Shown here: piece after piece, positions 3,499-29,321 of the stretch
How the letters are laid out: each line of letters begins with the position of its first letter
Numbering within the stretch: position 1 is the stretch's first letter
Source of the DNA: Myxococcota bacterium
Lineage (GTDB): Bacteria > Myxococcota_A > UBA796 > CAJQPC01
Direction of reading: 5' to 3'
DNA: 64,000 bases
NCBI GenBank assembly: GCA_036229005.1
Contig: JAZAMN010000064.1
Span: forward strand, 32,001-96,000
Made by a program: the position numbers and the translations under genes
Notes under the pieces: generated by a model
Seen by the model: only the letters and a program-made list of their open reading frames with translations
The model's database searches: none
Told to the model about the DNA's origin: nothing

Positions 3499-4383
3499 TC
3501 AGGTGATGATGACCTCGGGCACGCCGCCGCGCTTGGAGGCCTTGGAGTTGATGGCCCGGTTCACCAGGATCTGCTTGATGTCGAACTCGGCGTAGAGCTC
3601 GCGGACCTCGGGCGTGTCGTGGTTGCTCAGGATGACGGTGATGTCCCGCCGCTTGAGCTCCCAGGCCAGGTCACGCAGCTCCTCCTGGTCCTTGGGGCCG
3701 AAGCCGCCGCGGGTGTAGGAGGTGAAGTTCGAGGTCTTGTTCAAGGGGACGTAGGGCGGGTCGAAGTAGACCGTGTCGCCCGCCTCGGCCTTGAAGAAGA
3801 CGTCCTGGTAGTTGCCGTGGTTGATCTCCACCGTCTGGAGCGCCTTGGAGCAGTCCCGCAGGGTGCGGTGGTCCAGGATGGTGGGGTTGGTGTACTTGCC
3901 AAAGGGTACGTTGAACTTGCCCTTCTTGTTGACGCGGTACAGCCCGTTGAACCCGGTGCGGTTCAGGTAGATCATCCAGGCGGCGACGGCGGCGTCCTCG
4001 CGCTCGGCGTCCACATCCCAGGCGCGCACGTCGTAGTACTGCTCCTTGTTGTGGCCATCGCGTAGCACCGCGAGGCGGGCCATGACGCCGTCCAGGTCGT
4101 CCCGGATGCCGCGGTAGGTGCGGACCAGGCGATGGTTGACGTCCGTGAGCACGGCCCAGGTGTCTTCCCGCTGTCGCTGCGCGGTCTCGTCCGCGAGCGC
4201 CCAGAAGAAGGCACCGCCTCCCACGAAGGGTTCGAAGTAGCGCCCCATGGGGCGATTGACATGGCCGAGCAGGTGCGGCACCACCCGGCGCTTCCCACCC
4301 ACCCACTTCATGAAGGGGCGAAGGGGGGCGCGGGCCTCGGTGCGCTCATGCGCGTCCGCTCTTCCAGCAGCTACAGCAACCAT
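3499..4383 (-). CDS. dam: Dam-family (D12 class) DNA adenine methyltransferase, orphan
   Basis: Motifs PFMKWVGGK, YFEPFVGGG, YLNRTGFNGLYRVN..GKFNVPFG, YFDPPY, ILSN. Start placed at ATG 4383; the track ORF runs to 4452. Confidence 0.9.
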   Translation of the reverse strand: MVAVAAGRADAHERTEARAPLRPFMKWVGGKRRVVPHLLGHVNRPMGRYFEPFVGGGAFFWALADETAQRQREDTWAVLTDVNHRLVRTYRGIRDDLDGVMARLAVLRDGHNKEQYYDVRAWDVDAEREDAAVAAWMIYLNRTGFNGLYRVNKKGKFNVPFGKYTNPTILDHRTLRDCSKALQTVEINHGNYQDVFFKAEAGDTVYFDPPYVPLNKTSNFTSYTRGGFGPKDQEELRDLAWELKRRDITVILSNHDTPEVRELYAEFDIKQILVNRAINSKASKRGGVPEVIIT

Positions 4384-4547
4384 ATGTCCAGCTTCAACAG
4401 TGAAGGCACTTTCACACCCCCGCTGTTGACCTGTCAAGTGAAATGTCATCACCGCCCGAGATTGGCGTGACGATCCGACGCCGGATCCCGCGTTTTCATC
4501 CGCCAGATGGGCGTCCTGGTGTAATCTCGGGGCCCCTGGAGGCTCCC

Positions 4548-7130: not shown

Positions 7131-8243
7131 GTGAAGGAGATCGAGAGCATCGCCGGCCTGCAGGCCCACCTGGACGCCCACGGCACGCTGGACGGCGTGG
7201 TCATCCAGGGCGTCGACCTGTGCGGGCAGGATGACCTCGTGCGGGCCCTGGGGCGTCGGAGTTGTCTGCTGGGCTGCCTGCTCGATGATGGTGGGCTGGC
7301 CCGTGCCCAGCGCATCGGCGCCCTCGTCTTCCCGGTCCCGCCTCGGCTGCCCTTCCACCCCTACCGCGCGCACCTCTACACCCCGGAAGAGCTGCTCACC
7401 GGCTTTGTGCCCGGGGACCCTGACAGCTTCGCGCGCGACACGCTGGACTCGCGGATCTACGACCACTCCGAGGCTCTGCGGGGGAGCGAGGGGGCGCCGC
7501 CCGTCCTGGATGCGTTGGCCCAACGTCTCCACGATCACGCCATCGACGACGCTCTGGCTCAGCTCCTGCACGCCGGCGAGGACAAGCGTGTCGTGGCCAT
7601 CATGGGCGGTCACAGCATGCGGCGCTGCACCCCCGAGTGGATGCAGGTCCTGCGCCTGGGGCGGGAGCTCACCCGGGCCGGCTATTTCGTCGCCACCGGC
7701 GGGGGCCCTGGCGCCATGGAGGCCGGCAACCTGGGCGCCTGGCTCGCCCCGCACCCCGACCGCGCCCTGGAGGAGGTCGCCGCCCTGCTCGGCGGCGCGC
7801 CCCACTACACGGACCCCGGCTACATCGAGGCCGCCATGGCCCTCAAGGAGCGCTACCCCCGCGGCGCCCAGTCCCTGGCCATCCCCACCTGGTTCTACGG
7901 CCACGAGCCCAGCAACCTGTTCGCCAGCCACGTGGCCAAGTACTTCTCCAACTCCCTGCGCGAGGACGGCCTGCTGGCCATCGCCACCCACGGCGTCGTG
8001 TTCGCCCCCGGCTCCGCCGGCACCGTCCAGGAGGTGTTCATGGACGCCTGCCAGAACCACTACCAGACCTTTGGCGGCCACGCCCCGATGGTGTTCCTGG
8101 GGAGACAGTTCTGGACCGAGACCCTGCCCGTGCGGCCGCTGCTGGAGGCTCTGGCCAAGGGGAAGGGCTACGGCGAGCAGCTTGGGTTTGTGGACACGGT
8201 GGAGGAGGTGGTGGGGTTTGTGGTGGGGCACCCGCCGGGGTGA
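7131..8243 (+). CDS. LOG/SLOG-family Rossmann-fold nucleotide-binding protein
   Basis: VAIMGGHS, ATGGGPGAMEAGN, KYFSNSLRE and FAPGSAGTVQE (PGGxGT-like); GGAG ribosome-binding site upstream. Confidence 0.85.
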   Translation: MKEIESIAGLQAHLDAHGTLDGVVIQGVDLCGQDDLVRALGRRSCLLGCLLDDGGLARAQRIGALVFPVPPRLPFHPYRAHLYTPEELLTGFVPGDPDSFARDTLDSRIYDHSEALRGSEGAPPVLDALAQRLHDHAIDDALAQLLHAGEDKRVVAIMGGHSMRRCTPEWMQVLRLGRELTRAGYFVATGGGPGAMEAGNLGAWLAPHPDRALEEVAALLGGAPHYTDPGYIEAAMALKERYPRGAQSLAIPTWFYGHEPSNLFASHVAKYFSNSLREDGLLAIATHGVVFAPGSAGTVQEVFMDACQNHYQTFGGHAPMVFLGRQFWTETLPVRPLLEALAKGKGYGEQLGFVDTVEEVVGFVVGHPPG

Positions 8244-8264: not shown

Positions 8265-10874
8265 TCAATAAGGAAGCTCAGCCAGCTGACTCAACACAGA
8301 CTCGAGCGTTGGGCGATCGCCCGGCTGGGGACGGGTGCAGGCCCGAAGCAGTTCGCGCCACTCCGGCAGCTGGAGTTGGTCCGGATCCGTCTGCCCGGTG
8401 AGCATGTATGTGAGGACCTTCCCAAAGGCATACACATCCATGGAGGGGTGTGGTTCTGCTTGTAGGACCTGCTCTTCGGGAGCGTAGCCAGGGGTCCAAC
8501 TGCCAGCGAGTGTCCTGCGTGACTGCAGGCGAACGAGGTTCTTTGCGAGGCCGAAGTCCCCCAGCTTCCAACGGTCTTGGACGCGGAGTACGTTCTCGGG
8601 CTTGAGGTCCCGATGTACGACGTCCAACTGGTGGAGGTTGCTAAGCGCTGCGCCAACCTCCAACCCGATTCGCTGGACTTCGGATGGGCCGAGAGTGCCA
8701 CCTTGAGAACGGACGTAGCTCTCCAGAGTACCGCCGTCAGCCAACTCTGTGACCAGGGCCATGGTGGTGTCGTCCTGGTGCACATCCAGGATCTTCAGGC
8801 TTCCCGCCACGTCAGCCCGTTCGAGCTTTGTGTAGATCTGAAGCTCTCGACGCAGCGCAACCGCGTTCAGGTCTTCCCCGACGGGAGCCTGCTTGATGAA
8901 GACCTGCTGACGGCTCTCGTTGTCGAAAGCTCGGTAGGCTCGGCTCATTCCGCCGCCAGCCAACTCCTCCAGGACGGCGTACCGGCCGTAGAGGACGAGC
9001 GTTGGTGTGTTGATGTCCCCGGGTGAGCGGGGGAGGGCAGCGCCGAAGTTCTTCCGAACACTGTCGCTGTCTCGTCCGTTGATCTCTTTTCCTGTTGCGT
9101 TCTCGATCAGGTCCAGCAGTCGTCTGGAGCGGTCGATTTTGAACTCTTCGTAGGTATCCGCCCGCATCAACTCAGGTGATGCCAAGTGGGTCCGACAGTA
9201 GGCATTCAGTTGCTTGGCATCGACGTCAGCGCGCTCGAGAAGCTCCAGGTAGTGGCTGGGGGCATGGCCTGAGATTCGTTGGTTCGTGCGGCGAGCCAGG
9301 GGGGTTCGGTTGTAGATGGCATTGTAGTCAGAGGATGGGATTCCCATACTCTTGCACCACTTCTGGGGAAACAGATGGTGGATGTCGATCGCGTCGCCTG
9401 CGCGGGAGATGTCGGAGACGGTATCCCCCCGGGCAAGGTCCCGACATCCTTGGGCAAGCAGAAGTGCTGCTATGCCTTTGTATGCCGCTGAGTTCCGGGT
9501 CCGGAGCGTAAGGAGGCGTGTAGGCTCGAAACTGCTGTCCCGTACGGTGGTCGGCTCTCGGTCATCGTCATCGACCCACTTGAGAAGGTCGGTAAGGTCG
9601 TGTGCGAATCGGGTCTCTGTACTGCTCCCATACAGCTCCCCAAACACACCACACCAGTACCAGCGCTCGAGCTTCTTGCGGGTTTTCTCGCTCTCTTCCT
9701 TTCCGCCCAGACGGGCAAGTACCGCTGCCAGAGGGACCAACTGAGTGGGATAGGGGACATTGCGCTCGTCGTAGATACACAGGCGCTCGAGCATCCTTGC
9801 TGCCCTGATGAACCCGGCTTCCAGACGGTCCGCTGTCTTCCGATACGACTCCAGCTTCAGGTTCAGCATGTCCTTTCGGGTGCAGCCCACCGCTGTGCCT
9901 TCGCCCGATTCCACTGCTTCAAATGAAGAGAGGAGCGTTACGGCCTGCATGAAATCCCTTGCACGAATCGTGCGCAGGACTGGATACCGGTGCATCCGCT
10001 GAGACCGGCCCTCTTGCTGGAGTCGTTCATTCTCGAAGACACCGTACCAGTCTGCGCGCAGTCTGAAGTCCTCGTCCTCGGCCGAGAACATCGCTGTGAG
10101 GAGCTCAAACACGGTGAGCTTCACGCCTCCAGTGTTCACGTTCTCGAACACCTGGCAGACCGCGGCATGGTCGGTGTTCTGAGCGAGTTCGATGACCGGT
10201 ACACGGTAGGTTCTAAGGTTCTGTAGAACGGTCTCTCTAAACTTGCTGAAGATTGAAAGGGTTTCCTGCGCCGTTCCATTTCCGAAGGCCCAGGTCATTT
10301 GTTCGGCGTGCCAAGTGGCTGCCCTCTCTGCGTCGAATGCAACCTCAAGTGGTATCGCCCAGTGCTTGAACTGCTGTTCGGGACTGCTGAGATCCTTCAC
10401 TACGTCACGGTTGAAGTTCGTCCGAATCACCCGGTCCGAGGGTGTGCTGAGGATTGCGTTTGTCCGTTCCGTGTCTTCGTTTAGACACGCCCTGATATCC
10501 AGGTAGAACCAGCGATCAATCGCCTTTCCCTTCTCGTCCTGTGTCTCCACGGGGCTGTTCTTCTTCAGTGCCTGGAACAGACTCGTGATTCTCTGCTGGC
10601 CATCAAGCAGCAGCAACTCTGGAGCGCGGTTGACCCTTGGTGCTCCCTCAATCGGCCGGGGATGAAATGCCGGTCTCCCGCCCGTCTTCAGCATCAAGAG
10701 TGCGCCGATTGGATAGGCAAGCGAGATGCTCGCCACCAGCGCTCGAATGCCCTCTTCCTTCCATACCCAGCCCCTCTGGAAGTCGGGCAGCTGGATCTCT
10801 CCACGATTCACCCGCTCAAGCAGGGTGGGAAGATCAGGTTGATTCAGGTCGAATGCGGAGATGCCTGCTGGCAT
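8265..10874 (-). CDS. GmrSD-like protein (DUF262 + HNH/DUF1524) fused to a C-terminal Ser/Thr protein kinase
   Basis: DUF262 motifs LPDFQRGWVW, LLDGQQR, FENVNTGG; HNH-like DIHHLFPQ...NRTPL...TNQRIS; kinase LAGGGMSRAY, VFIK, HRDLKPENV, DFG, GYAPE, DVYAFG. Visibly lower GC than its neighbours. Confidence 0.85.
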   Translation of the reverse strand: MPAGISAFDLNQPDLPTLLERVNRGEIQLPDFQRGWVWKEEGIRALVASISLAYPIGALLMLKTGGRPAFHPRPIEGAPRVNRAPELLLLDGQQRITSLFQALKKNSPVETQDEKGKAIDRWFYLDIRACLNEDTERTNAILSTPSDRVIRTNFNRDVVKDLSSPEQQFKHWAIPLEVAFDAERAATWHAEQMTWAFGNGTAQETLSIFSKFRETVLQNLRTYRVPVIELAQNTDHAAVCQVFENVNTGGVKLTVFELLTAMFSAEDEDFRLRADWYGVFENERLQQEGRSQRMHRYPVLRTIRARDFMQAVTLLSSFEAVESGEGTAVGCTRKDMLNLKLESYRKTADRLEAGFIRAARMLERLCIYDERNVPYPTQLVPLAAVLARLGGKEESEKTRKKLERWYWCGVFGELYGSSTETRFAHDLTDLLKWVDDDDREPTTVRDSSFEPTRLLTLRTRNSAAYKGIAALLLAQGCRDLARGDTVSDISRAGDAIDIHHLFPQKWCKSMGIPSSDYNAIYNRTPLARRTNQRISGHAPSHYLELLERADVDAKQLNAYCRTHLASPELMRADTYEEFKIDRSRRLLDLIENATGKEINGRDSDSVRKNFGAALPRSPGDINTPTLVLYGRYAVLEELAGGGMSRAYRAFDNESRQQVFIKQAPVGEDLNAVALRRELQIYTKLERADVAGSLKILDVHQDDTTMALVTELADGGTLESYVRSQGGTLGPSEVQRIGLEVGAALSNLHQLDVVHRDLKPENVLRVQDRWKLGDFGLAKNLVRLQSRRTLAGSWTPGYAPEEQVLQAEPHPSMDVYAFGKVLTYMLTGQTDPDQLQLPEWRELLRACTRPQPGDRPTLESVLSQLAELPY

Positions 10875-10932
10875 GACCCCTCCCAGGAGAGCTTTGGTAC
10901 GTTGGACGACTTCTTCATACCAGACTCCCGAG

Positions 10933-11742
10933 TCAGCGCGCCCGAACTAGCTCCTCCAACACCGCGCTCTCCCCCTCCGCATCCACACAATCGTCCAGCT
11001 CCCACACCACCAGCTCCCCCGATCGGCTGTAGTAGATCCCCACGCGCTCGATGGGCTCCGGGGGCCCACCGTTGAAGCCGTAGGCCCGCGCCAGGATGGC
11101 GTAGCCCACAAGCTGGCGCACATCCTTGAGCCTGAGCCGCAGGTCCTTGGTCGTCTTGATGTCGATCAGCAGGTCATCCAGCACCAGGTCGGCGTCCGCC
11201 CCGCCCACAATCAGCGAGCCTTCGCCAAAGCCTGGGTTCAGCAGGCAGCGCTCCGCGGGCACGAAGGCGTCCCAGGTGATCTCCGCGTAGAGCGCCTGCA
11301 ACTCCTCCAGCCACCCCGGGGGCGGTTCGCGACCAATCCACGTATCGGGCGCGACCGACGCGACGCCCCGCCCGATGGGCTCCAGCAGCGCGAGATCCCA
11401 GCACGCCCGAGCCTGCGCCCGAGTCAGCGCTTCGGCATCCTCCCAGGTCTGCAGGTCCTGCAGGGCCCGCTCCAGCAGCGCCTCACAAGCCCGCGCCTGC
11501 TCACGACTCCGCTGAGCGAGGGGGGCCCGCTCGGCAATCAGCGGCCCGCTCTCGCAGCGCTCCGGCCACAGGACCTCAAAGCCCGCCCGCATCGCGTAGT
11601 CGAACGCGGTCCCCATCAGCGCCGGACTGCCCCCGCAGGAAGGCACGCGCAGCGGCTCGCCGGGCCGACACTCGGGCTTCCGCATCCACTGCTTGAACAC
11701 AGCCCGGCCGCTGGGACTGTCTGCTCGGCTGGTGAGGCTCAT
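10933..11742 (-). CDS. Putative PD-(D/E)XK nuclease
   Basis: GTAFDY, LNPGFG, GADADLVLDDLLIDIKTT and QLVGY resemble the RecB/Cas4-like nuclease core (D...DxK, QxxxY). Confidence 0.65.
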   Translation of the reverse strand: MSLTSRADSPSGRAVFKQWMRKPECRPGEPLRVPSCGGSPALMGTAFDYAMRAGFEVLWPERCESGPLIAERAPLAQRSREQARACEALLERALQDLQTWEDAEALTRAQARACWDLALLEPIGRGVASVAPDTWIGREPPPGWLEELQALYAEITWDAFVPAERCLLNPGFGEGSLIVGGADADLVLDDLLIDIKTTKDLRLRLKDVRQLVGYAILARAYGFNGGPPEPIERVGIYYSRSGELVVWELDDCVDAEGESAVLEELVRAR

Positions 11743-11805: not shown

Positions 11806-12243
11806 GTGCATGCTACCCTCTGCGGCCCCAAGCAGGCCATCCGCCAAAGACCCCGGGGGGAAGCACCCTTGCGCAGCCTACGAGACCAGATCCTCCACCT
11901 CCGGCAGCAGCCTCTGCTTCACATAGACGCAATCCGGGCCCGCATCGACCAACACCTCCAAACCGCCCAAACCGCCGCCCAGACCTCCCCCTTCGTCGAC
12001 CTCCCCACGGCCGCCACGATCCACGCCGCCTGCACCGAGCTCCTCAACGACTGGGACCAGCTCACCGACGATGCGCGCCTCTGGGCCCAGGTCGCCTGCC
12101 TCTACTTCGCCGACCCCGATGACTCCGCCGGCGAGCCCGACTTCGACTCCATCGTGGGCTTCGACGACGACCTCGACGCCCTCAACCACTGCCTCGAGCG
12201 CATCGGCCGCCCGCCGGTCCCGCACCCCATGGACGCCCCATGA
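11806..12243 (+). CDS. Small YkvA/DUF1232-like protein (start may be TTG at 11869)
   Basis: ACLYFADPDD...PDFDSIVGFDDD resembles the DUF1232 motif Y..SP.D.IPD....G..DD; its stop overlaps the SNF2 start (ATGA). Confidence 0.5.
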   Translation: MHATLCGPKQAIRQRPRGEAPLRSLRDQILHLRQQPLLHIDAIRARIDQHLQTAQTAAQTSPFVDLPTAATIHAACTELLNDWDQLTDDARLWAQVACLYFADPDDSAGEPDFDSIVGFDDDLDALNHCLERIGRPPVPHPMDAP

Positions 12244-15107
12244 GCACCCTGAACACCTACCCCCCAGGCCAGCGCGTCGAGATCCGGGACGAGGAGTGGC
12301 TGGTCCGCCGCACACTCCCGGCCCAACAAGGCACGGCTGTCCAGGTCATCGGCCTCTCTGAGCTGGTGCGCGGCCACGAGGCCACCTTCCTGGACACCCT
12401 GGACCCCGTCACCGTCCTGCGGCCCGAAGACACCGAGCTCGTCCCGGACCCCAGCCCCGGCCACCGCCGCAGCCGCCTCTACCTGGAGGCCCTGCTCCGG
12501 CGCAGCCCGCCCACCGACCCCCGGCTGGTCATCGGCCACCGCGCCGCCATCCGCGAGAGCCCCTACCAGTGGGCCCCCGCCGCCCAGGCCCTCCGCCAGC
12601 CCCGCCCCCGCATCCTCATGGCCGACGGCGTGGGCCTCGGAAAGACCATCGAGGTCGGCGTCCTGCTCTCCGAGCTCATCCAGCGGGGCAGGGGACAGCG
12701 CATCCTGGTCGTCGCCCTCAAGTCCATCCTGGCCCAGTTCCAGGAGGAGCTCTGGGCCCGCTTCACCATCCCCCTGGTCCGCCTGGACTCCGTGGGCATC
12801 CAGCGCGTCCAGGGCCGCATCCCGGCCAACCAGAACCCCTTCCATTACTTCGACCGCGTCATCGTCTCCATCGACACCCTCAAGAAGGATGCGCGCTACC
12901 GCGGCTACCTGGAGAACGCCCACTGGGACGCCGTCGTCATCGACGAGTGCCAGAACGTCGCCGAGCGCGGCACCAAGGCCTCCCAGCGCGCCCGCCTGGC
13001 CCAGCTCCTCGCCCGCACCGCCGACGCCCTCATCCTGACCTCCGCCACCCCCCACGACGGCCGCCCCGAGTCCTTCGCCAGCCTCATGCACCTGCTGGAG
13101 CCCACGGCCATCGCCGACCCCAGCCAGTACACCAAGGACGAGGTCCAGGGCCTCTTCATCCGCCGCTTCCAGAAGGACGTCCGCGCCGGCGCCTCCGGCA
13201 GCTTCCACGAGCGCCAGCTCGGCACCCTGGCCCCCCGCTGCACCGACCCCGAAGAGGCCGCCCTGCTCGCCGTCCGCGGCGCCCGCTTCCACACCATCGG
13301 CCGCTCCCGCAAGACCGACGCCCTCTTCCGCGTCCTGCTCCTCAAGGCCCTGCTCTCCAGCCCCGCCGCCTGCCTCCAGACCCTCGCCGAGCGCCGCCGC
13401 AAGCTGGAGAAGCGCGAGCAGACCGACGACGTGGTCCACGACCTGCAGGTCATCGACGACCTCACACAGACCGTCTCCGCCATCTCCACCGCCCAGCAGT
13501 CCAAGCTCCAGGCCCTCTTCCAGTTCCTGGACGACCTGGGCTACCGCAAGGGCACCCCCGGCAAGCGCGTCGTCATCTTCTCCGAGCGCCGCGCCACCCT
13601 GGACATGCTGCAAGAGCAGCTCGCCGCCCGCTACGGCCTCAAGACCACCGCCGCCCGCAAGGGCGAGCTCCACAAGTGGCGCAAGGGCCAGATCGCCACC
13701 TTCCACGGCTCCCTCCCCGACCAGGAGCAGTACGCCTTGGTCCAGGACTTCTCCAACGAAAAGGGCAGCCTCCGCCTGCTCCTGGGCTCCGACGCCGCCG
13801 CCGAAGGCCTGAACCTCCACCACACCTGCCACCACCTGGTCCACTTCGACATCCCCTGGTCGCTGATCACCCTGGAGCAGCGCAACGGCCGCATCGACCG
13901 CTTCGGCCAGAGCGAGCCCCCCATCATCCGCTACCTGCTCTCCGACCCCGGCCACCCCGATCTGCAGGGCGACATGCGCATCCTCAAGCGCCTGATCGAC
14001 AAGGAGGGCGAAGCCGCCGCCAACCTGGGCGACGTGGCCTGGCTCATGAAGCTCCACGACGCCGTCCAGGAAGAGCGCCGCATCGCTCAGGCCATCGAGT
14101 CCGGCGAGTCCCCCGAGTCCGTGCTCCCCGACGCCGACGACCAGCCCCAGGACGACGACGACTGGCTCCAGGCCCTGCTCGAGGAAGAGGAGGAGGAGGA
14201 GCCGGAGACCACCCGCCCATTCCGCCTCCTACCCTCTGACCTGGAGTATGCCCGCCTGGGCTTTGGAGAGCTGCTGGCCGACGGCGAGGACAGGCTGGTC
14301 CAGTGGGAGCCCGAGCTCTCCGGCTTCGTCCTGCAGATGCCCCCGGACCTGGCCACCCGCTACCGCTACCTGCCCCCCCAGCTCCAGCGCGGAAAGGACG
14401 GCCGCCTCAAGCTCAGCACCGACCGCAAGCGCGTCATGGACGCCTACGCCCAGGCCCGCAACACCGAAGACGGCTGGCCCGAGTGGGAGCTCTTCTGGGA
14501 GCAGCACCCCGTGGCCGAGTGGCTCAACGACCGCGTCCTGGCCACCTTCCGCCGCCACGAGGCTCCCGTGCTCCCGGTGCACGCCCACCTGCAGCCTGGC
14601 CAGGCCGCCTACATCTTCCAGGGCGTGCTCGCCAACCAGCGCTCCGTCCCCGTTCGGGTGGAGTGGGGGGCCGTCGTCCTGCGCGGCCCCGGCGACCTGC
14701 AGCTCCAGCCCTTCGAGAGCCTCGCTGCCGCCGTCGGCCTGGACCAGCCTCTGCCCAACACCGGCCAGTCCCTGGACACCGCCCCCCTCAGCGCGAACCT
14801 CCCCGCCGCCGTCCGCGCCTTTGGCGACCACATGCGCCGCGTCTCCCTGGAGTACCAGCGGGACGCCGTCGCCCAGCTCCGCCCCGCCGTCCGCAAGCTC
14901 CGCGGCTGGCACGGCCGCAGCCTGGAGCAGCTCCAGGCTCAGCAGCAGCGCCTCATCGGCGCCCAGAGCGTCAAAGAGCGCCAGCTCCAGCAGCAGCGCC
15001 AGGAGCTCGACCGCGTCTACAAGAGCCGCCACGACTGGATCCAGAACTCCGTCAAGCCCGGCCCCCCCACCACGCGACTGGCCGCTGTGCTGGTCCGCCC
15101 CGCCTGA
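12240..15107 (+). CDS. SNF2-family helicase, DrmD-like
   Basis: ILMADGVGLGKT, VVIDECQ, TSATPH, VIFSE, EGLNL, LEQRNGRIDRFGQ; N-terminal GQRVEIRDEEWLV. Confidence 0.9.
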   Translation: MSTLNTYPPGQRVEIRDEEWLVRRTLPAQQGTAVQVIGLSELVRGHEATFLDTLDPVTVLRPEDTELVPDPSPGHRRSRLYLEALLRRSPPTDPRLVIGHRAAIRESPYQWAPAAQALRQPRPRILMADGVGLGKTIEVGVLLSELIQRGRGQRILVVALKSILAQFQEELWARFTIPLVRLDSVGIQRVQGRIPANQNPFHYFDRVIVSIDTLKKDARYRGYLENAHWDAVVIDECQNVAERGTKASQRARLAQLLARTADALILTSATPHDGRPESFASLMHLLEPTAIADPSQYTKDEVQGLFIRRFQKDVRAGASGSFHERQLGTLAPRCTDPEEAALLAVRGARFHTIGRSRKTDALFRVLLLKALLSSPAACLQTLAERRRKLEKREQTDDVVHDLQVIDDLTQTVSAISTAQQSKLQALFQFLDDLGYRKGTPGKRVVIFSERRATLDMLQEQLAARYGLKTTAARKGELHKWRKGQIATFHGSLPDQEQYALVQDFSNEKGSLRLLLGSDAAAEGLNLHHTCHHLVHFDIPWSLITLEQRNGRIDRFGQSEPPIIRYLLSDPGHPDLQGDMRILKRLIDKEGEAAANLGDVAWLMKLHDAVQEERRIAQAIESGESPESVLPDADDQPQDDDDWLQALLEEEEEEEPETTRPFRLLPSDLEYARLGFGELLADGEDRLVQWEPELSGFVLQMPPDLATRYRYLPPQLQRGKDGRLKLSTDRKRVMDAYAQARNTEDGWPEWELFWEQHPVAEWLNDRVLATFRRHEAPVLPVHAHLQPGQAAYIFQGVLANQRSVPVRVEWGAVVLRGPGDLQLQPFESLAAAVGLDQPLPNTGQSLDTAPLSANLPAAVRAFGDHMRRVSLEYQRDAVAQLRPAVRKLRGWHGRSLEQLQAQQQRLIGAQSVKERQLQQQRQELDRVYKSRHDWIQNSVKPGPPTTRLAAVLVRPA

Positions 15108-15116
15108 GAGCGCCCC

Positions 15117-18100
15117 ATGGCCCTGGACCTCACCGGCATCGAGAACCGCGGGGAGTTCTACTCCCACCACTACCTGGACGCCCTGCTCGAGAGCGACCTC
15201 AAGCCTCTGCTCCAGCAGTGGGCCGACGCCGAGAGCGCCACCCCGCCCGTGCGCGCCCCCTACAAGCGCCTGGGGGGGCTGGCCGGCCGCTACTTCGACG
15301 CCCGCGCCCAGGCCGCTGAGCTTGGCCCCCAGGCCCTCAGCGAGCGCTGGCAGCTCGCCCACGCCTTCCACGCCCACCTGCTGGACGCCCTGGGCTACAC
15401 CCGCAGCCCCCAGACCGTCGAGCTCCCCGGCGGCACCCAGCTCCCCTTGCTGCACGAAGAGCGCCGCGGCGGCCAGGCCGCCCTGTGGGTGATCGAAGCC
15501 CCCGCCCCCCAGCCCGACCAGGACCCCCTGGACGCCCAGCCCCTGCGCGACCAGTACCCCCAGCTGGGCCCCGACACCAAGACCCCCGAGCTCACCTGGC
15601 GCGAGCTCCTGGACCGCGAGCTCTTCCGCCACGACGACGCCCCCACCTGGGTGCTCTTCCTGGGCGGCTCCGAGATCGTGCTGACCCACCGCCACAAGTG
15701 GGGCCGCGGCCAGGCCCTGGCCTTTGACCTGGACGCCCTCTACGCCCGCCGCCAGTCCGCCGCCTTCCGCGCCATGGCCGCCCTGCTCCACCAGCAGGCC
15801 CTGGTCCCCAGCGACGGCGTCTCCCTGCACGAGCACCTGGACGAGTCCAGCCACAAGCACGCCTTCTCCGTCTCCGGCGACCTGCGACGCGGCGCCGAGC
15901 AGGCCATCGAGATCCTGGGCAATGAAACCGCCTGGTACCTGCGCACCGTGCGCCGCCGCGGCGTCTTCGGCAGCAGCGAGTCCGCCGAGTCCGTCGACCC
16001 CACCCAGCTCACCCGCGAGCTGCTGGTCTATCTGTATCGCCTCATCTTCCTGTTCTACGTCGAGTCCCGCAGCGACGCCCTGGGCGTCGTCCCCATGCGC
16101 TCCGAGTCCTACCGCCGCGGCTACAGCCTGGAGTCCCTGCGCGATCTGGAGCAGGTCCCCCTGAGCACCCCCCAGGCCCAGGAAGGCTACTTCCTGCACC
16201 ACAGCCTCCAGCAGCTCTTCAAGCTGGTCAACCAGGGCCACGGCGTCGCCGCCCAGCAGTCCCTGAACGCGGCGGGCATGGACGCCGCCGGCTTCCGCAT
16301 CCGCGGCCTGCACAGCCGCCTCTTTGACGACACCCAGCTCTCCATCCTGGCCCGGGTCCGCTTCCGCAACGCCGCCCTCCAGCGCGTCATCCAGCTCCTC
16401 TCCTTGTCAGAGGAGGGCAAGCACCGCCAGCGCGGCCGCATCTCCTACGCCAGCCTGGGCATCAACCAGCTCGGCGCCGTCTACGAGGGCCTGCTCTCCT
16501 ACACCGGCTTCTTCGCCAAGGTCGATCTGATCGAGGTCGCCAACCCAGAGAAGAAGGGCAAGCCCGACGCTCGCAGCTTCTTCGTGCCCGAGTCCCACAT
16601 CGACCGCTACGACGACGCGGAGGTCGTGCGCGATCCCAAGACCGGCGCCCGCAAGCGCTACCCTCGGGGCAGCTATCTGTATCGCCTGGCCGGCCGCGAC
16701 CGCGAGAAGTCCGCCAGCTTCTACACCCCCGAGGTCCTCACCCGCGCCCTGGTCCGCTACACCCTGCAGGAGCGCATCGGCAAGGACGGCGCCCCCGACG
16801 CACTGCCCGCCGACGCGCTGCTCACCCTGAGCATCTGCGAGCCCGCCATGGGCAGCGGCGCCTTCTTGAACGAGGTCATCGAGCAGCTCGCCCACGCCTA
16901 CCTGGACCGCAAGTCCGCCGAGCTGGGCCAGCAGATCCCGGCCGCCGACTACCCCCGCGAGCTCCAGCGGGTCAAGGCCCACATGGCCGCCACCCAGTGC
17001 TACGGCGTGGACCAGAACCCCCTCGCCACCGAGCTGGGCAAGGTCTCCCTGTGGCTGAACACCCTGCGCCCGGGCGCCCCCGCACCCTTCTTCGACCCGC
17101 GCATCGTCACCGGCAACTCCCTGGTGGGCGCCCGCCTGGCCGTCTACACCCCCAAGCACCTGCACAAGGCCGGCAAGAACAAGCCCCCCAACTGGACCGA
17201 GGCCGCCCCCGAGCCCCTGCAGGGCCCCCGCGCTCCCCAGGCCATCTACCACTTCCTGCTGCCCACCACCGGCATGGCCCCCTTCGACGGCGACAAGGTC
17301 GTCAAGGCCCTGCTCCCCGAGCGCGTGGCCGAGCTCAAGGCCTGGCACAAGACCCTCAAGGCCGCCTGGAGCCCCGCACACCGGGCCCGCCTCCAGAAGC
17401 TGTCGGAGCAGGTGGACAGTCTGTGGGAGGAGGTAGCGGCGCATCGGCGCAAGACACTGGCCGCCTGCACCCCCCCAAGCCCCGTCTGGCCGGAACCTGA
17501 CAACACCGACCCCGCAGACGAGGACACCCTGGCCGCGACCTGGCGCCAGGCCCAGGACGACGACTCCGCCGGCAAGCGCCTGCGGGCCGTCATGGACTAC
17601 TGGTGCGCCCTGTGGTTCTGGCCCCTGCAGCGCGCCGCCGAGCTGCCCAGCCGAGAGCAGTGGCTGGCCGATCTGGAGCTCTTGTTGGCGGGCCGCCGCC
17701 GGGATGCGGGCAGCGACAGCCCCACCGCCCGGCGCCTGGACCTGGCCGCCGAGCTCGCACAGACCCACCGCTTTGTGCACTGGCCCCTGGAGTTCCCGGA
17801 GGTGTTGGCGAATGGTGGCTTTGACGTGGTGGTGGGAAATCCGCCGTGGATCAAGCTGCAGTGGAACGAGGGCGGCATCCTGTCGGATCTGGACCCCCGC
17901 CTGGTCATCCGGCGCATGTCCGCCAAGAAGATGGCCGATCAGCGCGCACAGACTCTGGAGCAGCCGGAGGCCCTTGCCGCGTATCTGGGGGAGTTTGAGG
18001 GGCTGGAGGGGCAGAAGGCCTTTTTGAATGGGGTGGGGAACTATCCACTGTTGAAGGGGGTGCAGACGAATCTGTACAAGGCCTTCTTGAGCCTGGGCTG

Positions 18101-19691
18101 GCGTGTGCTGGACCGCGCTGGCATCGGCGGCATGTTCCACCAGGCAGGCATCTTTGATGACCCCAAGGGCGGGGCCCTGCGCAGCCACGCTTTCCCCCGG
18201 ATGCGGCTGGTTGGTCTCGCCAAGAACCAGCTCAGTCTCTTTGAGGGTGTCACGCACCAGCGGCCCTACTGCTTCACAGTCTGGGGAGGCCGAGAGGACG
18301 TCTCGGTAGACTTCCGCTGTGTGTCCAACCTCTTCCACCCCCGCACCCTCGACGCCTCGCTGGAACACGACGGCCTCGGCGAGGTCCCCGGAATCAAAGA
18401 CGACGAGGGCAACTGGGACCTGCGCGGCCACTGCTCCCGCATCGTCCACGTGGACCAGGCCACCCTGGGCCTCTTCGCCAAGCTCTACGACCCCCCTGGC
18501 ACGCCGGCCCTGCAGGCCCGGCTGCCGGTGGTCCACAGCCAGGAGATCCTGAGCGTGCTGCGCAAGCTGGCCCAGGCGCCGCGCACCCTGGCGGATCTGG
18601 AGGGGCAGTTCTTCGCCACGGTGTGCTTCGATGAGACCGGAGCGCAGCGCAACGGGACCATCAAGCGGGACGTCCGCTTCCCTGCCGACCCCAGCGAGTG
18701 GGTGGTCTCCGGCCCCCACTTCTACGTGGGCACCCCCTTCAACAAGACCCCCAACGAAGGCTGCCGCCACAACCAGGACTACAGCGTGGTGGACTGGATG
18801 GACATGCCGGCGGACTACCTGCCCCGCACGAACTACGTGCCGGCCTGTGATGCGGAGACCTACCGGGAGCGCACGCCGCACTGGCAGGGGCGGCCGGTGA
18901 CGGAGTCGTTTAGGCACGTCCATCGCCGAATGGCTCCGCCTACTGGAGAGCGCACGCTGGCGCTGGCGATTTTGCCCCCCGGGGCTGCCCACACTCACAC
19001 TGTGATCTCGTTTACGTATTCGTCACCGAAGGAGTTGGTCGCCAGCGCGGGGTTCTTCTCCTCCATTCCGTATGACTTCTTCGCCAAGTCCACGGGGAAG
19101 AGCGACATCTATGAGCAGACGATTGCTGCATTCGCTAGGCCAGAGGCACCCACGCAGTTGATTTCGCGCGCCCTCCGCCTGAACTGCCTCACCGCCCACT
19201 ACGCCGACCTCTGGTCGGAGCTCTACCAGCCTGACTTCGCCGGCGACACCCACACAAAGACCGACCCCCGGCTGCCCGACTGGTCCCACTTGGTGGACCA
19301 CTGGACCTGGGACACCCCCCTCCGCTCTCCCTTCTCCCGCCGGCAGGCGCTGGTGGAGCTAGACGCGCTGGCCGCCATCGCCCTGGGCCTCACAGCGGAA
19401 GAGCTCTGCCTGATCTACCGCGTACAGTTCCCGGTGCTGCGCGGCTACGAGAGCGACACCTGGTACGACCAGCGCGGGCGCATCGTGTTCACCAACAACC
19501 GCGGCCTGAACGGCGTGGGGCTCTCCCGAAAGGAGTGGAACGAGATCCGCGACGCCCAGCCCGGCGACCCCCTGCCGGAGTGGGCCCGCGACAACCTGGG
19601 TTGCTACCAGCCGCCCTTTGACCGCTGCGACCGGGAGGCCGACATGACCCAGGCCTACAACGCCTTTGTGGCCCGGGGGGTGACCCAGTGA
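15117..19691 (+). CDS. Large N6-adenine DNA methyltransferase (Eco57I/type IIG, DrmMI-like) with C-terminal target-recognition region
   Basis: LGAVYEGLL, SFYTPE, motif I CEPAMGSGAFL, YGVD, motif IV GFDVVVGNPPW, NLYKAF. Confidence 0.9.
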   Translation: MALDLTGIENRGEFYSHHYLDALLESDLKPLLQQWADAESATPPVRAPYKRLGGLAGRYFDARAQAAELGPQALSERWQLAHAFHAHLLDALGYTRSPQTVELPGGTQLPLLHEERRGGQAALWVIEAPAPQPDQDPLDAQPLRDQYPQLGPDTKTPELTWRELLDRELFRHDDAPTWVLFLGGSEIVLTHRHKWGRGQALAFDLDALYARRQSAAFRAMAALLHQQALVPSDGVSLHEHLDESSHKHAFSVSGDLRRGAEQAIEILGNETAWYLRTVRRRGVFGSSESAESVDPTQLTRELLVYLYRLIFLFYVESRSDALGVVPMRSESYRRGYSLESLRDLEQVPLSTPQAQEGYFLHHSLQQLFKLVNQGHGVAAQQSLNAAGMDAAGFRIRGLHSRLFDDTQLSILARVRFRNAALQRVIQLLSLSEEGKHRQRGRISYASLGINQLGAVYEGLLSYTGFFAKVDLIEVANPEKKGKPDARSFFVPESHIDRYDDAEVVRDPKTGARKRYPRGSYLYRLAGRDREKSASFYTPEVLTRALVRYTLQERIGKDGAPDALPADALLTLSICEPAMGSGAFLNEVIEQLAHAYLDRKSAELGQQIPAADYPRELQRVKAHMAATQCYGVDQNPLATELGKVSLWLNTLRPGAPAPFFDPRIVTGNSLVGARLAVYTPKHLHKAGKNKPPNWTEAAPEPLQGPRAPQAIYHFLLPTTGMAPFDGDKVVKALLPERVAELKAWHKTLKAAWSPAHRARLQKLSEQVDSLWEEVAAHRRKTLAACTPPSPVWPEPDNTDPADEDTLAATWRQAQDDDSAGKRLRAVMDYWCALWFWPLQRAAELPSREQWLADLELLLAGRRRDAGSDSPTARRLDLAAELAQTHRFVHWPLEFPEVLANGGFDVVVGNPPWIKLQWNEGGILSDLDPRLVIRRMSAKKMADQRAQTLEQPEALAAYLGEFEGLEGQKAFLNGVGNYPLLKGVQTNLYKAFLSLGWRVLDRAGIGGMFHQAGIFDDPKGGALRSHAFPRMRLVGLAKNQLSLFEGVTHQRPYCFTVWGGREDVSVDFRCVSNLFHPRTLDASLEHDGLGEVPGIKDDEGNWDLRGHCSRIVHVDQATLGLFAKLYDPPGTPALQARLPVVHSQEILSVLRKLAQAPRTLADLEGQFFATVCFDETGAQRNGTIKRDVRFPADPSEWVVSGPHFYVGTPFNKTPNEGCRHNQDYSVVDWMDMPADYLPRTNYVPACDAETYRERTPHWQGRPVTESFRHVHRRMAPPTGERTLALAILPPGAAHTHTVISFTYSSPKELVASAGFFSSIPYDFFAKSTGKSDIYEQTIAAFARPEAPTQLISRALRLNCLTAHYADLWSELYQPDFAGDTHTKTDPRLPDWSHLVDHWTWDTPLRSPFSRRQALVELDALAAIALGLTAEELCLIYRVQFPVLRGYESDTWYDQRGRIVFTNNRGLNGVGLSRKEWNEIRDAQPGDPLPEWARDNLGCYQPPFDRCDREADMTQAYNAFVARGVTQ

Positions 19692-22600
19692 TCCCCAGCG
19701 TCGTCGCCCGCCAGCTCCAGGACAACCTGCTGGACTACGTGGGGGCCACCCTGGCCCTCTCCGACGCCGCGGTGGACGACGCCCTGCAGGCGCACCTGGC
19801 CGGGAAAAACGGCCTCTTCGCCGGGCCCTACCTGCGCCTGGGCCTGCCCTTTGCCAGCGCGCCCGCGGACGCGCCTCCGGTGCTGGACGTCGGGCCGCCC
19901 TTTGTGCCCTACGCCCACCAGCGGCAGGCCTTCGAGCAGCTCTCCAGCGACCAGGCCCAGCCGCGCAACACGCTGATCACCACGGGCACCGGCTCGGGCA
20001 AGACCGAGTGCTTTTTGTACCCCATCCTGGACCACTGCCAGCGGCACCGGGACACGCCGGGGGTGCAGGCCATCCTGATCTACCCCATGAACGCCCTGGC
20101 CACCGACCAGGCCCGGCGCTTCGCCCAGGCCATCCACGAAGATCCGCGCCTGCACGGCCTGCGCGTGGGTCTGTATGTGGGCGGCAAGGGGGGCACCCGC
20201 AAGATGGGCCCCGAGCAGGTGATCGAAGACAAGGACGTGCTGCGCAAGCACCCCCCACAGATCCTGCTCACCAACTACAAGATGCTGGACTTCATGCTGC
20301 TGCGCCCCGACGAGCGCAAGCTGTGGTCCCACAACGGCCCCCAGACCCTGCGCTACCTGGTGATCGACGAGCTGCACACCTTCGACGGCGCCCAGGGCTC
20401 GGACGTGGCCTGCCTGATCCGGCGCCTCAAGGCCCGCCTGGGCACGCCCCCGGGGCACCTGATCTGCGCGGGGACCTCGGCGACCATCGGCGGCAGCGCG
20501 GACGGCGACTCAGTGGCCCGGCTCTCGGAGTTCGCCGGCCTGGTCTTTGACGCGGACTTCCACCCCAGCGCCGTGGTGGGGGAGCAGCGCGTGCCCCGCC
20601 GGGAGTTTCTGCGACAGGCCACCGGCCCCACGCCGCTGCCTGACCGCGCCCAGCTCGCCGCCCTGCACCCCGGACCGGACGCGGAGGCCTGGCTGAGCCA
20701 GCAGCAGCAGCTCTGGCTGGGCCAGGTCTTCGACGACCCGGTGGCCCTGGGCGACGCCCTGCGCGCGCACCCCCTGCTGGACCACCTGCTGGCGCTCTGC
20801 GCCGCGCACCCTCGGCCCCTGCCCAAGCTGGCCCAGCGCCTGCACGAGCGCATGCCGGAGCTGCGCGCCTACCGCGACGACGCCCTGGGCGCGCTGCTCG
20901 ACTCCTTCTTGGGCTTGCTGGCCCACGCCCGCCGCAAGCAGGGCTCCAAGACCCTGCCGCTGGTCACCCTGCAGATGCAGCTCTGGAGCCGGGAGCTCAC
21001 CCGCCTGCTGCGCGTGCTCCCCAACCGCCAGCGCCCCGAGCAGCAGCCCGAGATCGGTGAGTCCCCGGGCATCGACGGGCTGGTCCCGCGCTTTGTGTGG
21101 TGGACCGAGCAGCCCAACCCCGACCGCTCCAAGCCCCTGGCCGGTGTGCAGGCCCACTGCCGCGAGTGCGGCGCCGTGGGCTTGGCCTGCGCGGAGACGG
21201 AAGCCGACCAGCAGAAGGGCCAGCTCACCTGGGACCCCGGCGCGGTGGGCCAGCACTGGATGGAGAGCAGCCGGGCGGCGCGCTTTCTGTGGCTGCGCCC
21301 CCTGGACCACGAGCAGCGGGTGGGGGAGCTGATCCACTGGCTGGATCCCAGCGGCGGCGTGGTCATGGGCGTGGAGCCCGTGGACGACCAGGGGCAGGGG
21401 ACCGGCGTGCCCGTCATCGTGGAGAAGCGCCTGGGCAACGGGGGGCGCTTTCTGGCCCAGTGCCCCTGCTGCGAGAGCGAAGACGCCCTGCGCATCCTGG
21501 GCGCCCGCGCCGCCAGCCTGAGCAGCGTGGTCATCTCCCAGCTCTTCCAGTCGGACTACCACCACGACCCCAAGCTGCTGGCCTTCACCGACTCGGTGCA
21601 GGACGCCAGCCACCGGGCCGGGTTCTTTGGCGCCCGCAGCTTCCGCATTCACCTGCGCGTGGCCATGCAGGCCGTCCTGCGCGCCGCCCAGGACCGGGGG
21701 GAGACCCTGACCCTGGAGAGCGCCCCCAAGGCCTTCCTGGAGCACTGGAAGGCCGAGCAGGGCGCGGCCTGGACCATGGCCGCCTTCTTCCCGCCCGACC
21801 TGCGGGAACTGCCCGAGTTCACGACCTACGTGGAGAAGAAGGGCAAGGGCCGCCACCAGCGCCTGTGGAACATCCTGCGCGCCCGCATGGGCTGGGAGTT
21901 CACCCGGGAGTTCGGCCTGATGGCCAGCCTGGGGCGCAGCCTGGAGCGCACGGGGGCCAGCACCCTGGCCATCGATCCCCAGCGCCTGGAGCAGGCGCAG
22001 CAGCGCTTTGAGCAGTGGCTGGCCCAGGACGGGCTGGCCGGCCCCAAGGCCCTGCCCCGCGCCTTCGTGCTGGGCCTGCTCCACCGCATGCGACACCAGG
22101 GCGGCATCCACCACCCCTACCTGGAGAGCTACCGGCGCAGCCTGGGCAACGCCTTCCTGCTCAACCGCCGCAAGAACCCCCACATCAGCTACTTCGGCCG
22201 CCGCACGCGGCGCCCCCGCTATGTGAGCTCCTACGCCAAGGGAAAACGTTTTGCCTCGCCCTTCTCCCGCCGCTCGGCGGCGGGCTGGTACGGCGACTGG
22301 ATGAACCGCTGCCTGGACTGGGGCAGCCCCGGTCCCGACGACGTGGCCCGCGTCTACCGCCAGCTCCTGGCCCACCTGGTGGAGGCCGGCATCCTGGAGC
22401 AGCGGGACGCCGAGGGCGGCGCCGAGACCTGGGGCCTGCGCCCCGACGCCCTGCACCTGAGCCTGGAGCTGGGCCGCCTGCGGGACGGGCACCGCCACCA
22501 GCACCTGCACGCCGCGGAGACCCAGGTCATCGCCGGCGGCCCGGTCTGGCGCTTCCGGGCCCCGGAGCGCTTTGTGTCTCAGAAGCCCCAGCCCGGCTTC

Positions 22601-28695: not shown

Positions 28696-29321
28696 TGTGG
28701 GGACCGCTGCAGGCGCTGTCTCGGCGTCGGTCTGTGTTTCATTCCGAGGCGGACTTCCAGTTCGAGCTGGCCACCGAGCTGCGGGAGCTAGGGTGGACCG
28801 AGATCCGCCTGGAGCGCCCCGCGCCCGGGCAGTCGGGTCGCATCTACGTGGACATCGTTGCGCGGGACCCGGATGGCGTGCGCTGGGCCATCGAGCTCAA
28901 GTACTGGACCCGCAAGCTGGAGCTCACCCTGGGCGACGACGTATTCGAGCTGCGGGACCAGTCCGCTCATGACCTGAACCGGTACGCGTTCTGCAAGGAC
29001 CTGGCGCGGGTTCAGCGCTTGGTGGCAGAGGGTGTCGCGCAGCGGGGGCGGGTCATCGCGCTGACCAACGACTCGGCCTACTGGAAGCCCGGGCGCTCGG
29101 AGCAGTGCTTGGATGCGGCGTTCCGCATTCACGAGGGCCGCGAGCTGTCCGGTGTGCTGGACTGGACCCGTGAGAGCGGGACCACCAAGGGAAAGGGGCC
29201 CTTGGCGCTGTCGAGCCCGGTCGCGCTGGCTTGGGAGGACTTCTGTGAGCTGGATGGGAAGCGGGGGCGCTTCCGCTTGTTGGACGTGCGCATTCCAGAG
29301 AGTGCGCACCCGCCGGGGTGA
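28695..29321 (+). CDS. Putative PD-(D/E)XK restriction-endonuclease-fold protein
   Basis: FHSEADFQFELA...YVDI...IELKY pattern; TGATG coupling to the UvrD gene; its stop codon lies inside the right direct repeat. Confidence 0.7.
   Translation: MWGPLQALSRRRSVFHSEADFQFELATELRELGWTEIRLERPAPGQSGRIYVDIVARDPDGVRWAIELKYWTRKLELTLGDDVFELRDQSAHDLNRYAFCKDLARVQRLVAEGVAQRGRVIALTNDSAYWKPGRSEQCLDAAFRIHEGRELSGVLDWTRESGTTKGKGPLALSSPVALAWEDFCELDGKRGRFRLLDVRIPESAHPPG

Follow-up and report, generated by a model that had tools for sequence, protein, structure and literature searches.

The window analysed here, 64,000 nucleotides (nt) of a Myxococcota bacterium genome (assembly GCA_036229005.1, contig JAZAMN010000064.1, positions 32,001 to 96,000), carries on its minus strand, at 8265-10874, a single open reading frame (ORF) of 869 amino acids, P0001, in which a GmrSD-like restriction protein is fused to a C-terminal Hanks-type Ser/Thr kinase. 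The frame opens with an ATG that lies 4 nt downstream of a Shine-Dalgarno-like GGAGG (10879-10883), and all of its domains are given here on the same strand. Residues 18-263 (10086-10823) form a GmrS/DUF262 domain of the ParB-like nucleoside triphosphatase (NTPase) type, which matches Pfam GmrSD_N above the cut-off (E = 1.4e-28) and aligns with BrxU. The DUF262 motifs reported in a first-pass annotation of the sequence were located at residues 33-34 (QR), 91-95 (DGQQR, 10590-10604) and 243-247 (FENVN), and S49 aligns with BrxU S42. A GmrD-like HNH-type nuclease region occupies approximately residues 441-612 (9039-9554). The HNH-like motif that the annotation noted corresponds to DIHHLFP (497-503, 9366-9386), which, together with N522 and N531, aligns with DHIYP of BrxU in a 36-sequence family profile, pairing H499 with D474 and H500 with H475 of BrxU; the stretch is weak when taken alone (independent E-value 5). 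Pfam GmrSD_C (DUF1524) gave no match to the fusion protein and matched 4 of the 36 family members weakly (best E = 0.0098). A short low-confidence linker (9003-9038), located at about the position where unfused relatives terminate, leads into a compact RD kinase at residues 625-869 (8268-9002), where Pfam Pkinase matches residues 632-829 (E = 7.4e-32). The residues of a Hanks kinase are all there, namely K661, E677, HRD (754-756, 8607-8615), K758, N761, DFG (773-775), E801, D813 and R854, with the activation-loop T788 at 8511-8513. The kinase motifs as first annotated therefore hold for the Lys, HRDLKPEN and DFG; the Gly loop, however, is without its first Gly (A639), and the Glu of the APE motif is E801 rather than E800, with APPEQ as the family form. 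Read from the sequence, the domain order is clear and both halves appear catalytically intact.

The structure prediction that had been proposed as a check agrees with this layout. The AlphaFold model of the whole protein has a mean predicted local distance difference test score (pLDDT) of 84.8, falling below 50 at residues 619-624 of the linker, and a predicted template modelling score (pTM) of 0.61. A structure search with this model placed BrxU (7P9K) second (E = 1.9e-11, 676 columns, 15% identity), with kinases making up the remaining matches; BrxU is the best structural match within the GmrSD family and the sole PDB sequence match of the N-terminal part. A prediction of the GmrSD part in complex with the kinase scored 0.00 and was counted neither for nor against. 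BrxU is described as an interlocked dimer that splits on NTP binding, with hydrolysis preceding cleavage by the HNH domain, and its substrates are DNA containing 5-methylcytosine, 5-hydroxymethylcytosine or glucosylated 5-hydroxymethylcytosine; it hydrolyses NTP even without DNA, and in the S42D mutant, ATP-driven dissociation is blocked and resistance abolished (PMC8565348). The fusion protein shares with BrxU and GmrSD (PADLOC HEC-05; PMC8565348, PMC4619093) the QR motif, the Ser equivalent to that of RLFDS, DGQQR, FxxxN, a helical middle and an HNH-type C-terminal motif, and one fusion homologue sits, like BrxU, inside a BREX operon. It differs in carrying the 245-residue kinase, in having HH where the nuclease motif of BrxU has DH, and in belonging to a distant subfamily; the best HEC-05 match covers residues 17-302 only (E = 1.5e-18), short of the full-length match of a BrxU orthologue. 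A kinase is missing from the add-on domains of the GmrSD family listed in section 12 of PMC4619093.

The GmrSD-kinase fusion is real and recurrent. In total, 28 full-length fusions were assembled, with 16 from a homologue search, 9 from a search with the kinase region, 2 from a profile search and the window protein itself. The 16 share 42-66% identity with the window protein and stand among the best 120 of 6016 homologues found (8000 scored), the remaining 104 of these 120 being unfused proteins of about 600 residues. The profile search covered 1.84 billion representatives, and 5 of the 150 matches listed span the whole profile. An assembly chimera at the domain junction, a check set by the first-pass annotation, is ruled out by the 27 other full-length fusions together with contigs bridging the junction. 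Near position 9030 it is crossed, with zero differences, by contigs from two of four seawater-metagenome runs, which count as weak evidence because they come from one study, possibly the assembly's own source. Mean identity of the window protein to the other 27 is 0.48 in GmrS, 0.48 in the middle, 0.48 in the HNH region and 0.49 in the kinase. Source labels of the homologues include Polyangiales, Deltaproteobacteria and Planctomycetota, and the fusion was absent from all 60 relatives examined. Among the 15 of 34 phage matches listed there were generic kinases only, at no more than 34% identity, while 70 plasmid records match the GmrSD part. The ESM Atlas returned generic kinase clusters only, and a whole-protein VIA search was likewise filled with kinases.

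A tree of the GmrSD part, built from 161 sequences (28 fused, 112 of the 193 unfused and 21 with other extensions), splits the fusions into two groups of 25 and 3. A single fusion clade was rejected (approximately unbiased test, p-AU 0.024) with 18 of the 28 fused and 18 unfused sequences, picked after inspection of the 161-sequence tree; the kinase has therefore been gained twice or has moved between GmrSD genes by recombination. DGQQR is kept in 28/28 fusions. The HNH motif is intact in 22/28, the window protein included, as it is in 183/193 unfused relatives and 21/21 of those with other extensions. In the other six fusions it has decayed with DGQQR and the kinase retained, from which it follows that the kinase can outlast the nuclease. 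All six fall in one seven-member clade, of which one member is intact, and the decay thus amounts to one or two events. A decayed motif was also observed in 10 of the 193 unfused relatives (P0379, P0404, P0438, P0443, P0452, P0475 and four more), whose neighbours may contain separate effectors.

The kinase is a member of a rare and well-separated clade, marked by a C-lobe shorter than usual and by a Thr that does not vary in the activation loop. In the search with the kinase region, 31 matches at E ≤ 9.5e-49 are separated from the next at 3.1e-31, and a second kinase search left a similar gap, with 31 matches at E ≤ 1.2e-29 and the next at 2.6e-20. A 25-member profile scored 73 of 497 proteins at 180 bits or more, with the next at 138 (a circular result for the 25 themselves), and in a quick tree 64 clade members stand apart from 6 generic kinases with support of 100 in the Shimodaira-Hasegawa-like approximate likelihood ratio test. 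HRD, K758, N761, the D and G of DFG, T788, E801, D813 and R854 are invariant in 70/70 clade members. This invariance, with identity in the kinase (0.49) matching that in the GmrSD parts (0.48), points to purifying selection on the kinase, and it suggests that the kinase is capable of phosphotransfer. The C-lobe is about 22 residues short: the αF Asp and the subdomain XI Arg lie a median of 41 residues apart (measurable in 61 of 71), compared with 63.5 for generic kinases (measurable in 136 of 178), by a rough, regex-based measure. The kinase model (pLDDT 92) has no helix between αF and the last two helices, so αG appears to be missing. The Val of β2 and the Ala of β3 that lie over the adenine are replaced mostly by Ala/Gly/Cys and Phe, giving an unusual pocket. 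By structure, PknB matches best (Z 27.0, rmsd 2.2, 228 aligned), tied with many others. A likeness of the activation loop (RLxTQxT) to the nuclease segment RLLTLRT was considered and rejected, as the segment is about equally conserved in unfused proteins and the loop does not change where the kinase is joined to other partners. With 5-11 candidates scored per genome, the clade was found in 5/182 genomes of the window's class and 4/401 of its phylum (overlapping sets), and in 3/401 of the class around a Polyangium genome; none was found in the 401 genomes of a planctomycete-centred phylum sample, where 5 candidates were scored in each. With the kinase alignment as query, genome contigs yielded at least 79 loci and metagenome contigs at least 78, all of them ordinary kinases at 26-37% identity.

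The first-pass annotation linked the kinase to GmrSD, and while the fusion is real, it missed how widely the same kinase is shared: some 14 further partner families carry it too, which marks it as a portable module not tailored to GmrSD. Of 73 clade proteins, 57 have the kinase at the C-terminus, 1 has it at the N-terminus and 1 internally, while the other 14 are the kinase by itself or fragments. BLAST sorted the N-terminal parts other than GmrSD, 29 in all, into 14 clusters, in which Pfam supports BrxL, PglZ, PLD, UvrD, FtsK, DUF1998 (YprA) and HNH partners. Weaker assignments are a HerA/TrwB-like ATPase (E 0.005-0.06), a dynamin-like GTPase below the cut-off, a DndE/PbeD-like protein labelled from its position after PbeC, a further GmrSD-like HNH piece recognised by its motif (P0131), and small domains without a name. 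In a quick tree the GmrSD-fused kinases are paraphyletic, with several of the other fusions nested within them. P0133 and P0134 consist of BrxL_N and an ATPase followed by the kinase, with no Lon C-terminal domain listed, and among 23 longer GmrSD relatives with non-kinase extensions, 6 carry Schlafen/AlbA_2 and 2, weakly, OLD-TOPRIM. The kinase thus occupies the slot where GmrSD and BrxL otherwise have Schlafen, TOPRIM or Lon domains. Because it is grafted onto so many unrelated folds, a role as the regulator of one nuclease is unlikely. As a separate observation, nine clade kinases (P0233, P0237, P0238, P0244, P0249, P0252, P0254, P0255, P0257) have in common an unnamed N-terminal domain of about 75 residues; several of the nine begin exactly there, and the domain may belong to the end of a longer gene that was called wrongly.

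Seven loci besides the window all lie in or beside defence genes or bear the GmrSD fusion itself. Three have the fusion: between pglX and pglY in a BREX-2 operon where a PglW-like gene is present as well (G788); upstream of the 3′ part of drmA, followed by drmB and drmC, at a contig end (G063); and between an ORF without assignment and an Hsp70-like ORF (G101). With the window, the four readable GmrSD-kinase loci have four different neighbourhoods and no fixed partner operon. In G063 (L183:12098-14287), the GmrSD-kinase gene is followed directly by drmA, of which only the 3′ part is present; a short stretch is duplicated at the break, and either drmA was interrupted by an insertion or the assembly may be faulty here. 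In the other four, the kinase is on a small protein that follows a PbeC-like SMC ATPase and an MTaX1/helicase pair (G033), on an FtsK ATPase with a C5-methylase on one side and Vsr on the other (G098), on an HNH protein beside que/dpdA/dpdB genes (G818), and on the end of a DUF1998 helicase in a 2.2-kb contig (G741). The G098 protein (L181:935-6709) is an FtsK-ATPase-kinase fusion of 1924 residues whose operon adds two genes without assignment, an arrangement that we label DndFGH-like by inference. The G818 locus (L205:5-13527) comprises queC-queE-queD-folE2, dpdA and two DGQHR dpdB genes, facing an operon of the HNH-kinase, UvrD and PD-(D/E)xK genes, and is possibly a Dpd variant with different restriction genes. 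No PP2C-type phosphatase or antitoxin was found among the ORFs scanned, which were a subset of those at these loci. Elsewhere, an unfused GmrSD of the subfamily (G089, L198:1593-7477) lies near two ORFs whose first residues, by eye, resemble a CBASS-type nucleotidyltransferase and an HNH-SAVED effector.

In the window, the fusion gene is a separate insertion, as the first-pass annotation had supposed, and the site is empty in two genomes of the same genus. The insertion is flanked on the left by a conserved SLOG/PpnN-like gene (7131-8243, plus strand), which in G001 directly adjoins a histidine kinase gene, without the fusion; in G002 the SLOG gene is followed by the histidine kinase gene and then by a homologue (49% identity) of the window ORF at 10933-11742, again without the fusion gene. 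The low GC content noted earlier is confirmed, at 59.1% against 70.0% for the genome, and GC at third codon positions (GC3) is 0.70 against 0.86-0.96 in the neighbouring genes; genome-wide, 24% of 2119 ORFs are at or below 0.70, in a crude ORF set that contains shadow frames. The ORF at 10933-11742 (minus strand) is PD-(D/E)xK-like (PADLOC RTasPDDEXK, E = 3e-8) and belongs to a family without a name. A functional link between it and the fusion was rejected, as it is absent upstream of the fusion in G101 and present in G002 without one. Beyond it, a divergent four-gene operon (12240-28695, plus strand) encodes, in the order of ARMADA type II (PMC12458937), an SNF2 helicase, a IIG/PglX-like methyltransferase, a YprA-DUF1998 helicase and a GajB-like UvrD, whose N-terminus matches DUF4145 (E = 2.5e-6) where ARMADA type II is described with RelE. 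This operon is a separate acquisition and is absent from the corresponding slot in G001. Its UvrD stop overlaps by one base an ORF of 208 residues (28695-29321, plus strand) with no Pfam match, which by eye may be a PD-(D/E)xK nuclease and the fifth gene of the operon. The window also holds an orphan Dam-family adenine methyltransferase (3499-4452, minus strand) that is conserved in G001.

Several known systems resemble parts of this arrangement. EcoSlfn7, a DUF262-Schlafen fusion that protects E. coli from phages (PMC13056530), likewise adds an effector-type domain to a DUF262 protein, and Schlafen is found in the same slot of the GmrSD subfamily; here, however, a protein kinase instead of an RNase is added, and its clade has spread to other systems too. 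Hanks kinases occur within the DNA-modification defence systems BREX-2 (PglW), MADS (MAD6) and Dnd (DndF), where they are proposed to be suicidal back-up effectors (PMC12839542, PMC10853773). These are products of dedicated genes with an N-terminal NERD domain and tandems of an inactive and an active kinase, whereas the fusion has a single compact C-terminal kinase with many partners. Against the PglW model (NF033442, at least 990 bits; NERD, pseudokinase, kinase and wHTH in about 1400 residues) the fusion scored 39.2 bits, over the kinase only, and against the MAD6 model (NF047741, at least 460 bits) it scored 95.2 bits. Ser/Thr kinases also serve phage defence in Stk2, KKP (PfkA/B-PfpC), PD-T4-6 and TerY-P, with toxic phosphorylation described for Stk2 and KKP (PMC11341870, PMC11090510); TerY-P kinases sit beside McrBC-type systems. 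In contrast to the fusion, for which no phosphatase was seen among the ORFs scanned, these Ser/Thr kinases are stand-alone or phosphatase-paired; NERD-pseudokinase-kinase modules are described in PglW and DndF, and PADLOC matches to Stk2 and PD-T4-6 were confined to the kinase core (e.g., positions 167-319 of 500 in the Stk2 model). The first-pass annotation did not know the fusion as a characterised system, and neither the GmrSD-kinase fusion nor the kinase clade was described in the open papers searched, although the supplements of PMC12839542 and PMC10853773, outside that search, may list it; four supplement files of PMC12458937 held no mention of the fusion. Further literature compared was bioRxiv 10.1101/2024.01.29.577857 and PMC5512222. 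The fusion extends the design of GmrSD plus an add-on, and the kinase marks a wider module that is apparently undescribed.

Everything beyond this anatomy we infer. Our preferred reading, to which we assign a probability of roughly 45%, is that the fusion is an anti-phage protein with two effectors, in which the kinase is a portable back-up. The GmrSD core would cut modified phage DNA, as predicted from BrxU, by analogy with which the fusion may sense modified DNA. Engagement of the target DNA would change the oligomeric state and bring the kinase domains together, which would then trans-phosphorylate the invariant activation-loop T788. The activated kinase, without the αG docking helix, may phosphorylate host proteins with low selectivity, and this phosphorylation would stall growth or phage replication, as the Stk2 and KKP kinases do. 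Of the two options raised by the first-pass annotation, abortive infection is thus the likelier. The kinase is read as a second effector because it fills the slot of Schlafen and TOPRIM domains, and a DUF262-Schlafen fusion protects E. coli. Several points weigh against this proposal. HNH decay is limited to the one seven-member clade and occurs also in 10/193 unfused relatives. No cognate phosphatase or antitoxin that could restrain a toxic kinase was seen among the ORFs scanned, and because the fusion is rare relative to thousands of unfused relatives, the kinase is dispensable for the GmrSD family. Since BrxU hydrolyses NTP without DNA, the trigger is not obvious, and a modified-DNA substrate has to be assumed, given how little the protein resembles BrxU outside GmrS (15% structural identity). 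A T7 kinase shows that phosphorylation can also turn defence proteins off (PMC13645617).

A broader reading, which we consider speculative, sees the kinase as an unrecognised plug-in guard module on the ends of BREX, DISARM/ARMADA, Pbe/Dnd, Dpd and GmrSD proteins, where it would read the assembly state of its partner, or its capture by a phage inhibitor, and arrest the cell; the HNH-dead GmrSD clade would then be a restriction enzyme turned kinase receptor. Such a module may be likened, as a bacterial counterpart, to the PKR-type proximity-activated antiviral kinases. In a narrower form that we hold somewhat less probable still, the kinase monitors the fused defence protein and fires when a phage inhibitor binds or disables it, with the GmrSD part of the HNH-dead clade serving as pure bait. 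PrrC provides a precedent for guarding a restriction enzyme. The presence of one kinase clade on many unrelated parts of modification-based systems, themselves known inhibitor targets, favours monitoring, as does the retention of the kinase and DGQQR in the HNH-decayed clade, and inhibition of GmrSD by T4 IPI is established (PMC12707154). Yet the nuclease motif is intact in 22/28 fusions, the inhibitor or trigger is hypothetical, and a single allosteric coupling would have to operate through short flexible linkers in many unrelated folds.

It is rather unlikely, and slightly more so than the narrower guarding scheme, that the kinase acts as a safety catch, phosphorylating its own partner, for example at S49, to hold off or reset the nuclease. 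This residue is Ser in 27/28 fusions, with one gap, the fusion would give a high local concentration, the S42D change at the aligned BrxU position abolishes resistance (PMC8565348), and phosphorylation is known to disarm DNA-binding defences (PMC13645617). However, unfused relatives conserve the position just as well (S or T in 190/193), and no Ser/Thr is both invariant in the fusions and missing from the unfused proteins. The best fusion-enriched sites, S418, T419, T442 and T594, reach 50-86% as against 9-40% in unfused proteins, and among the fused and unfused sequences compared no convincing fusion-specific phosphoacceptor emerged in GmrSD. Moreover, thousands of unfused relatives manage without a kinase, and the kinase is retained after HNH loss.

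The first-pass annotation had also raised control of the neighbouring operon by the kinase, a claim that found no support and that we regard as very improbable. The ARMADA-II-like operon does begin about 1.4 kb from the fusion gene, and kinases are core parts of BREX-2 and MADS; however, the operon is divergent, its GC3 of 0.92-0.96 differs from the 0.70 of the fusion gene, the PglW and MAD6 model scores are far under their cut-offs, and the other three GmrSD-kinase loci have different neighbours, which makes such control unlikely for a separate insertion whose neighbours vary. Least probable of all, and largely refuted, is that the fusion has no function and is a neutral passenger, or an artefact of read-through or of joining during assembly. 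The rarity of the clade (5/182, 3/401 and 0/401 genomes) and the whole-protein pTM of 0.61 could be cited for this; against it stand two lineages that together hold 28 full-length fusions, catalytic residues that do not vary, and contigs bridging the junction.

If the preferred reading of a two-effector protein with a portable back-up kinase is true, one small kinase would be a common back-up output for many unrelated DNA-modification defence systems. The fusion would then allow a direct test of the suicidal back-up proposal made for the PglW and DndF kinases, in a single gene with separable nuclease, NTPase and kinase. The natural HNH-dead members offer a ready control and may illustrate how a restriction enzyme can become a sensor. 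The kinase profile is also usable as a marker, since the loci found with it are defence loci, in which several partners are without a family name.

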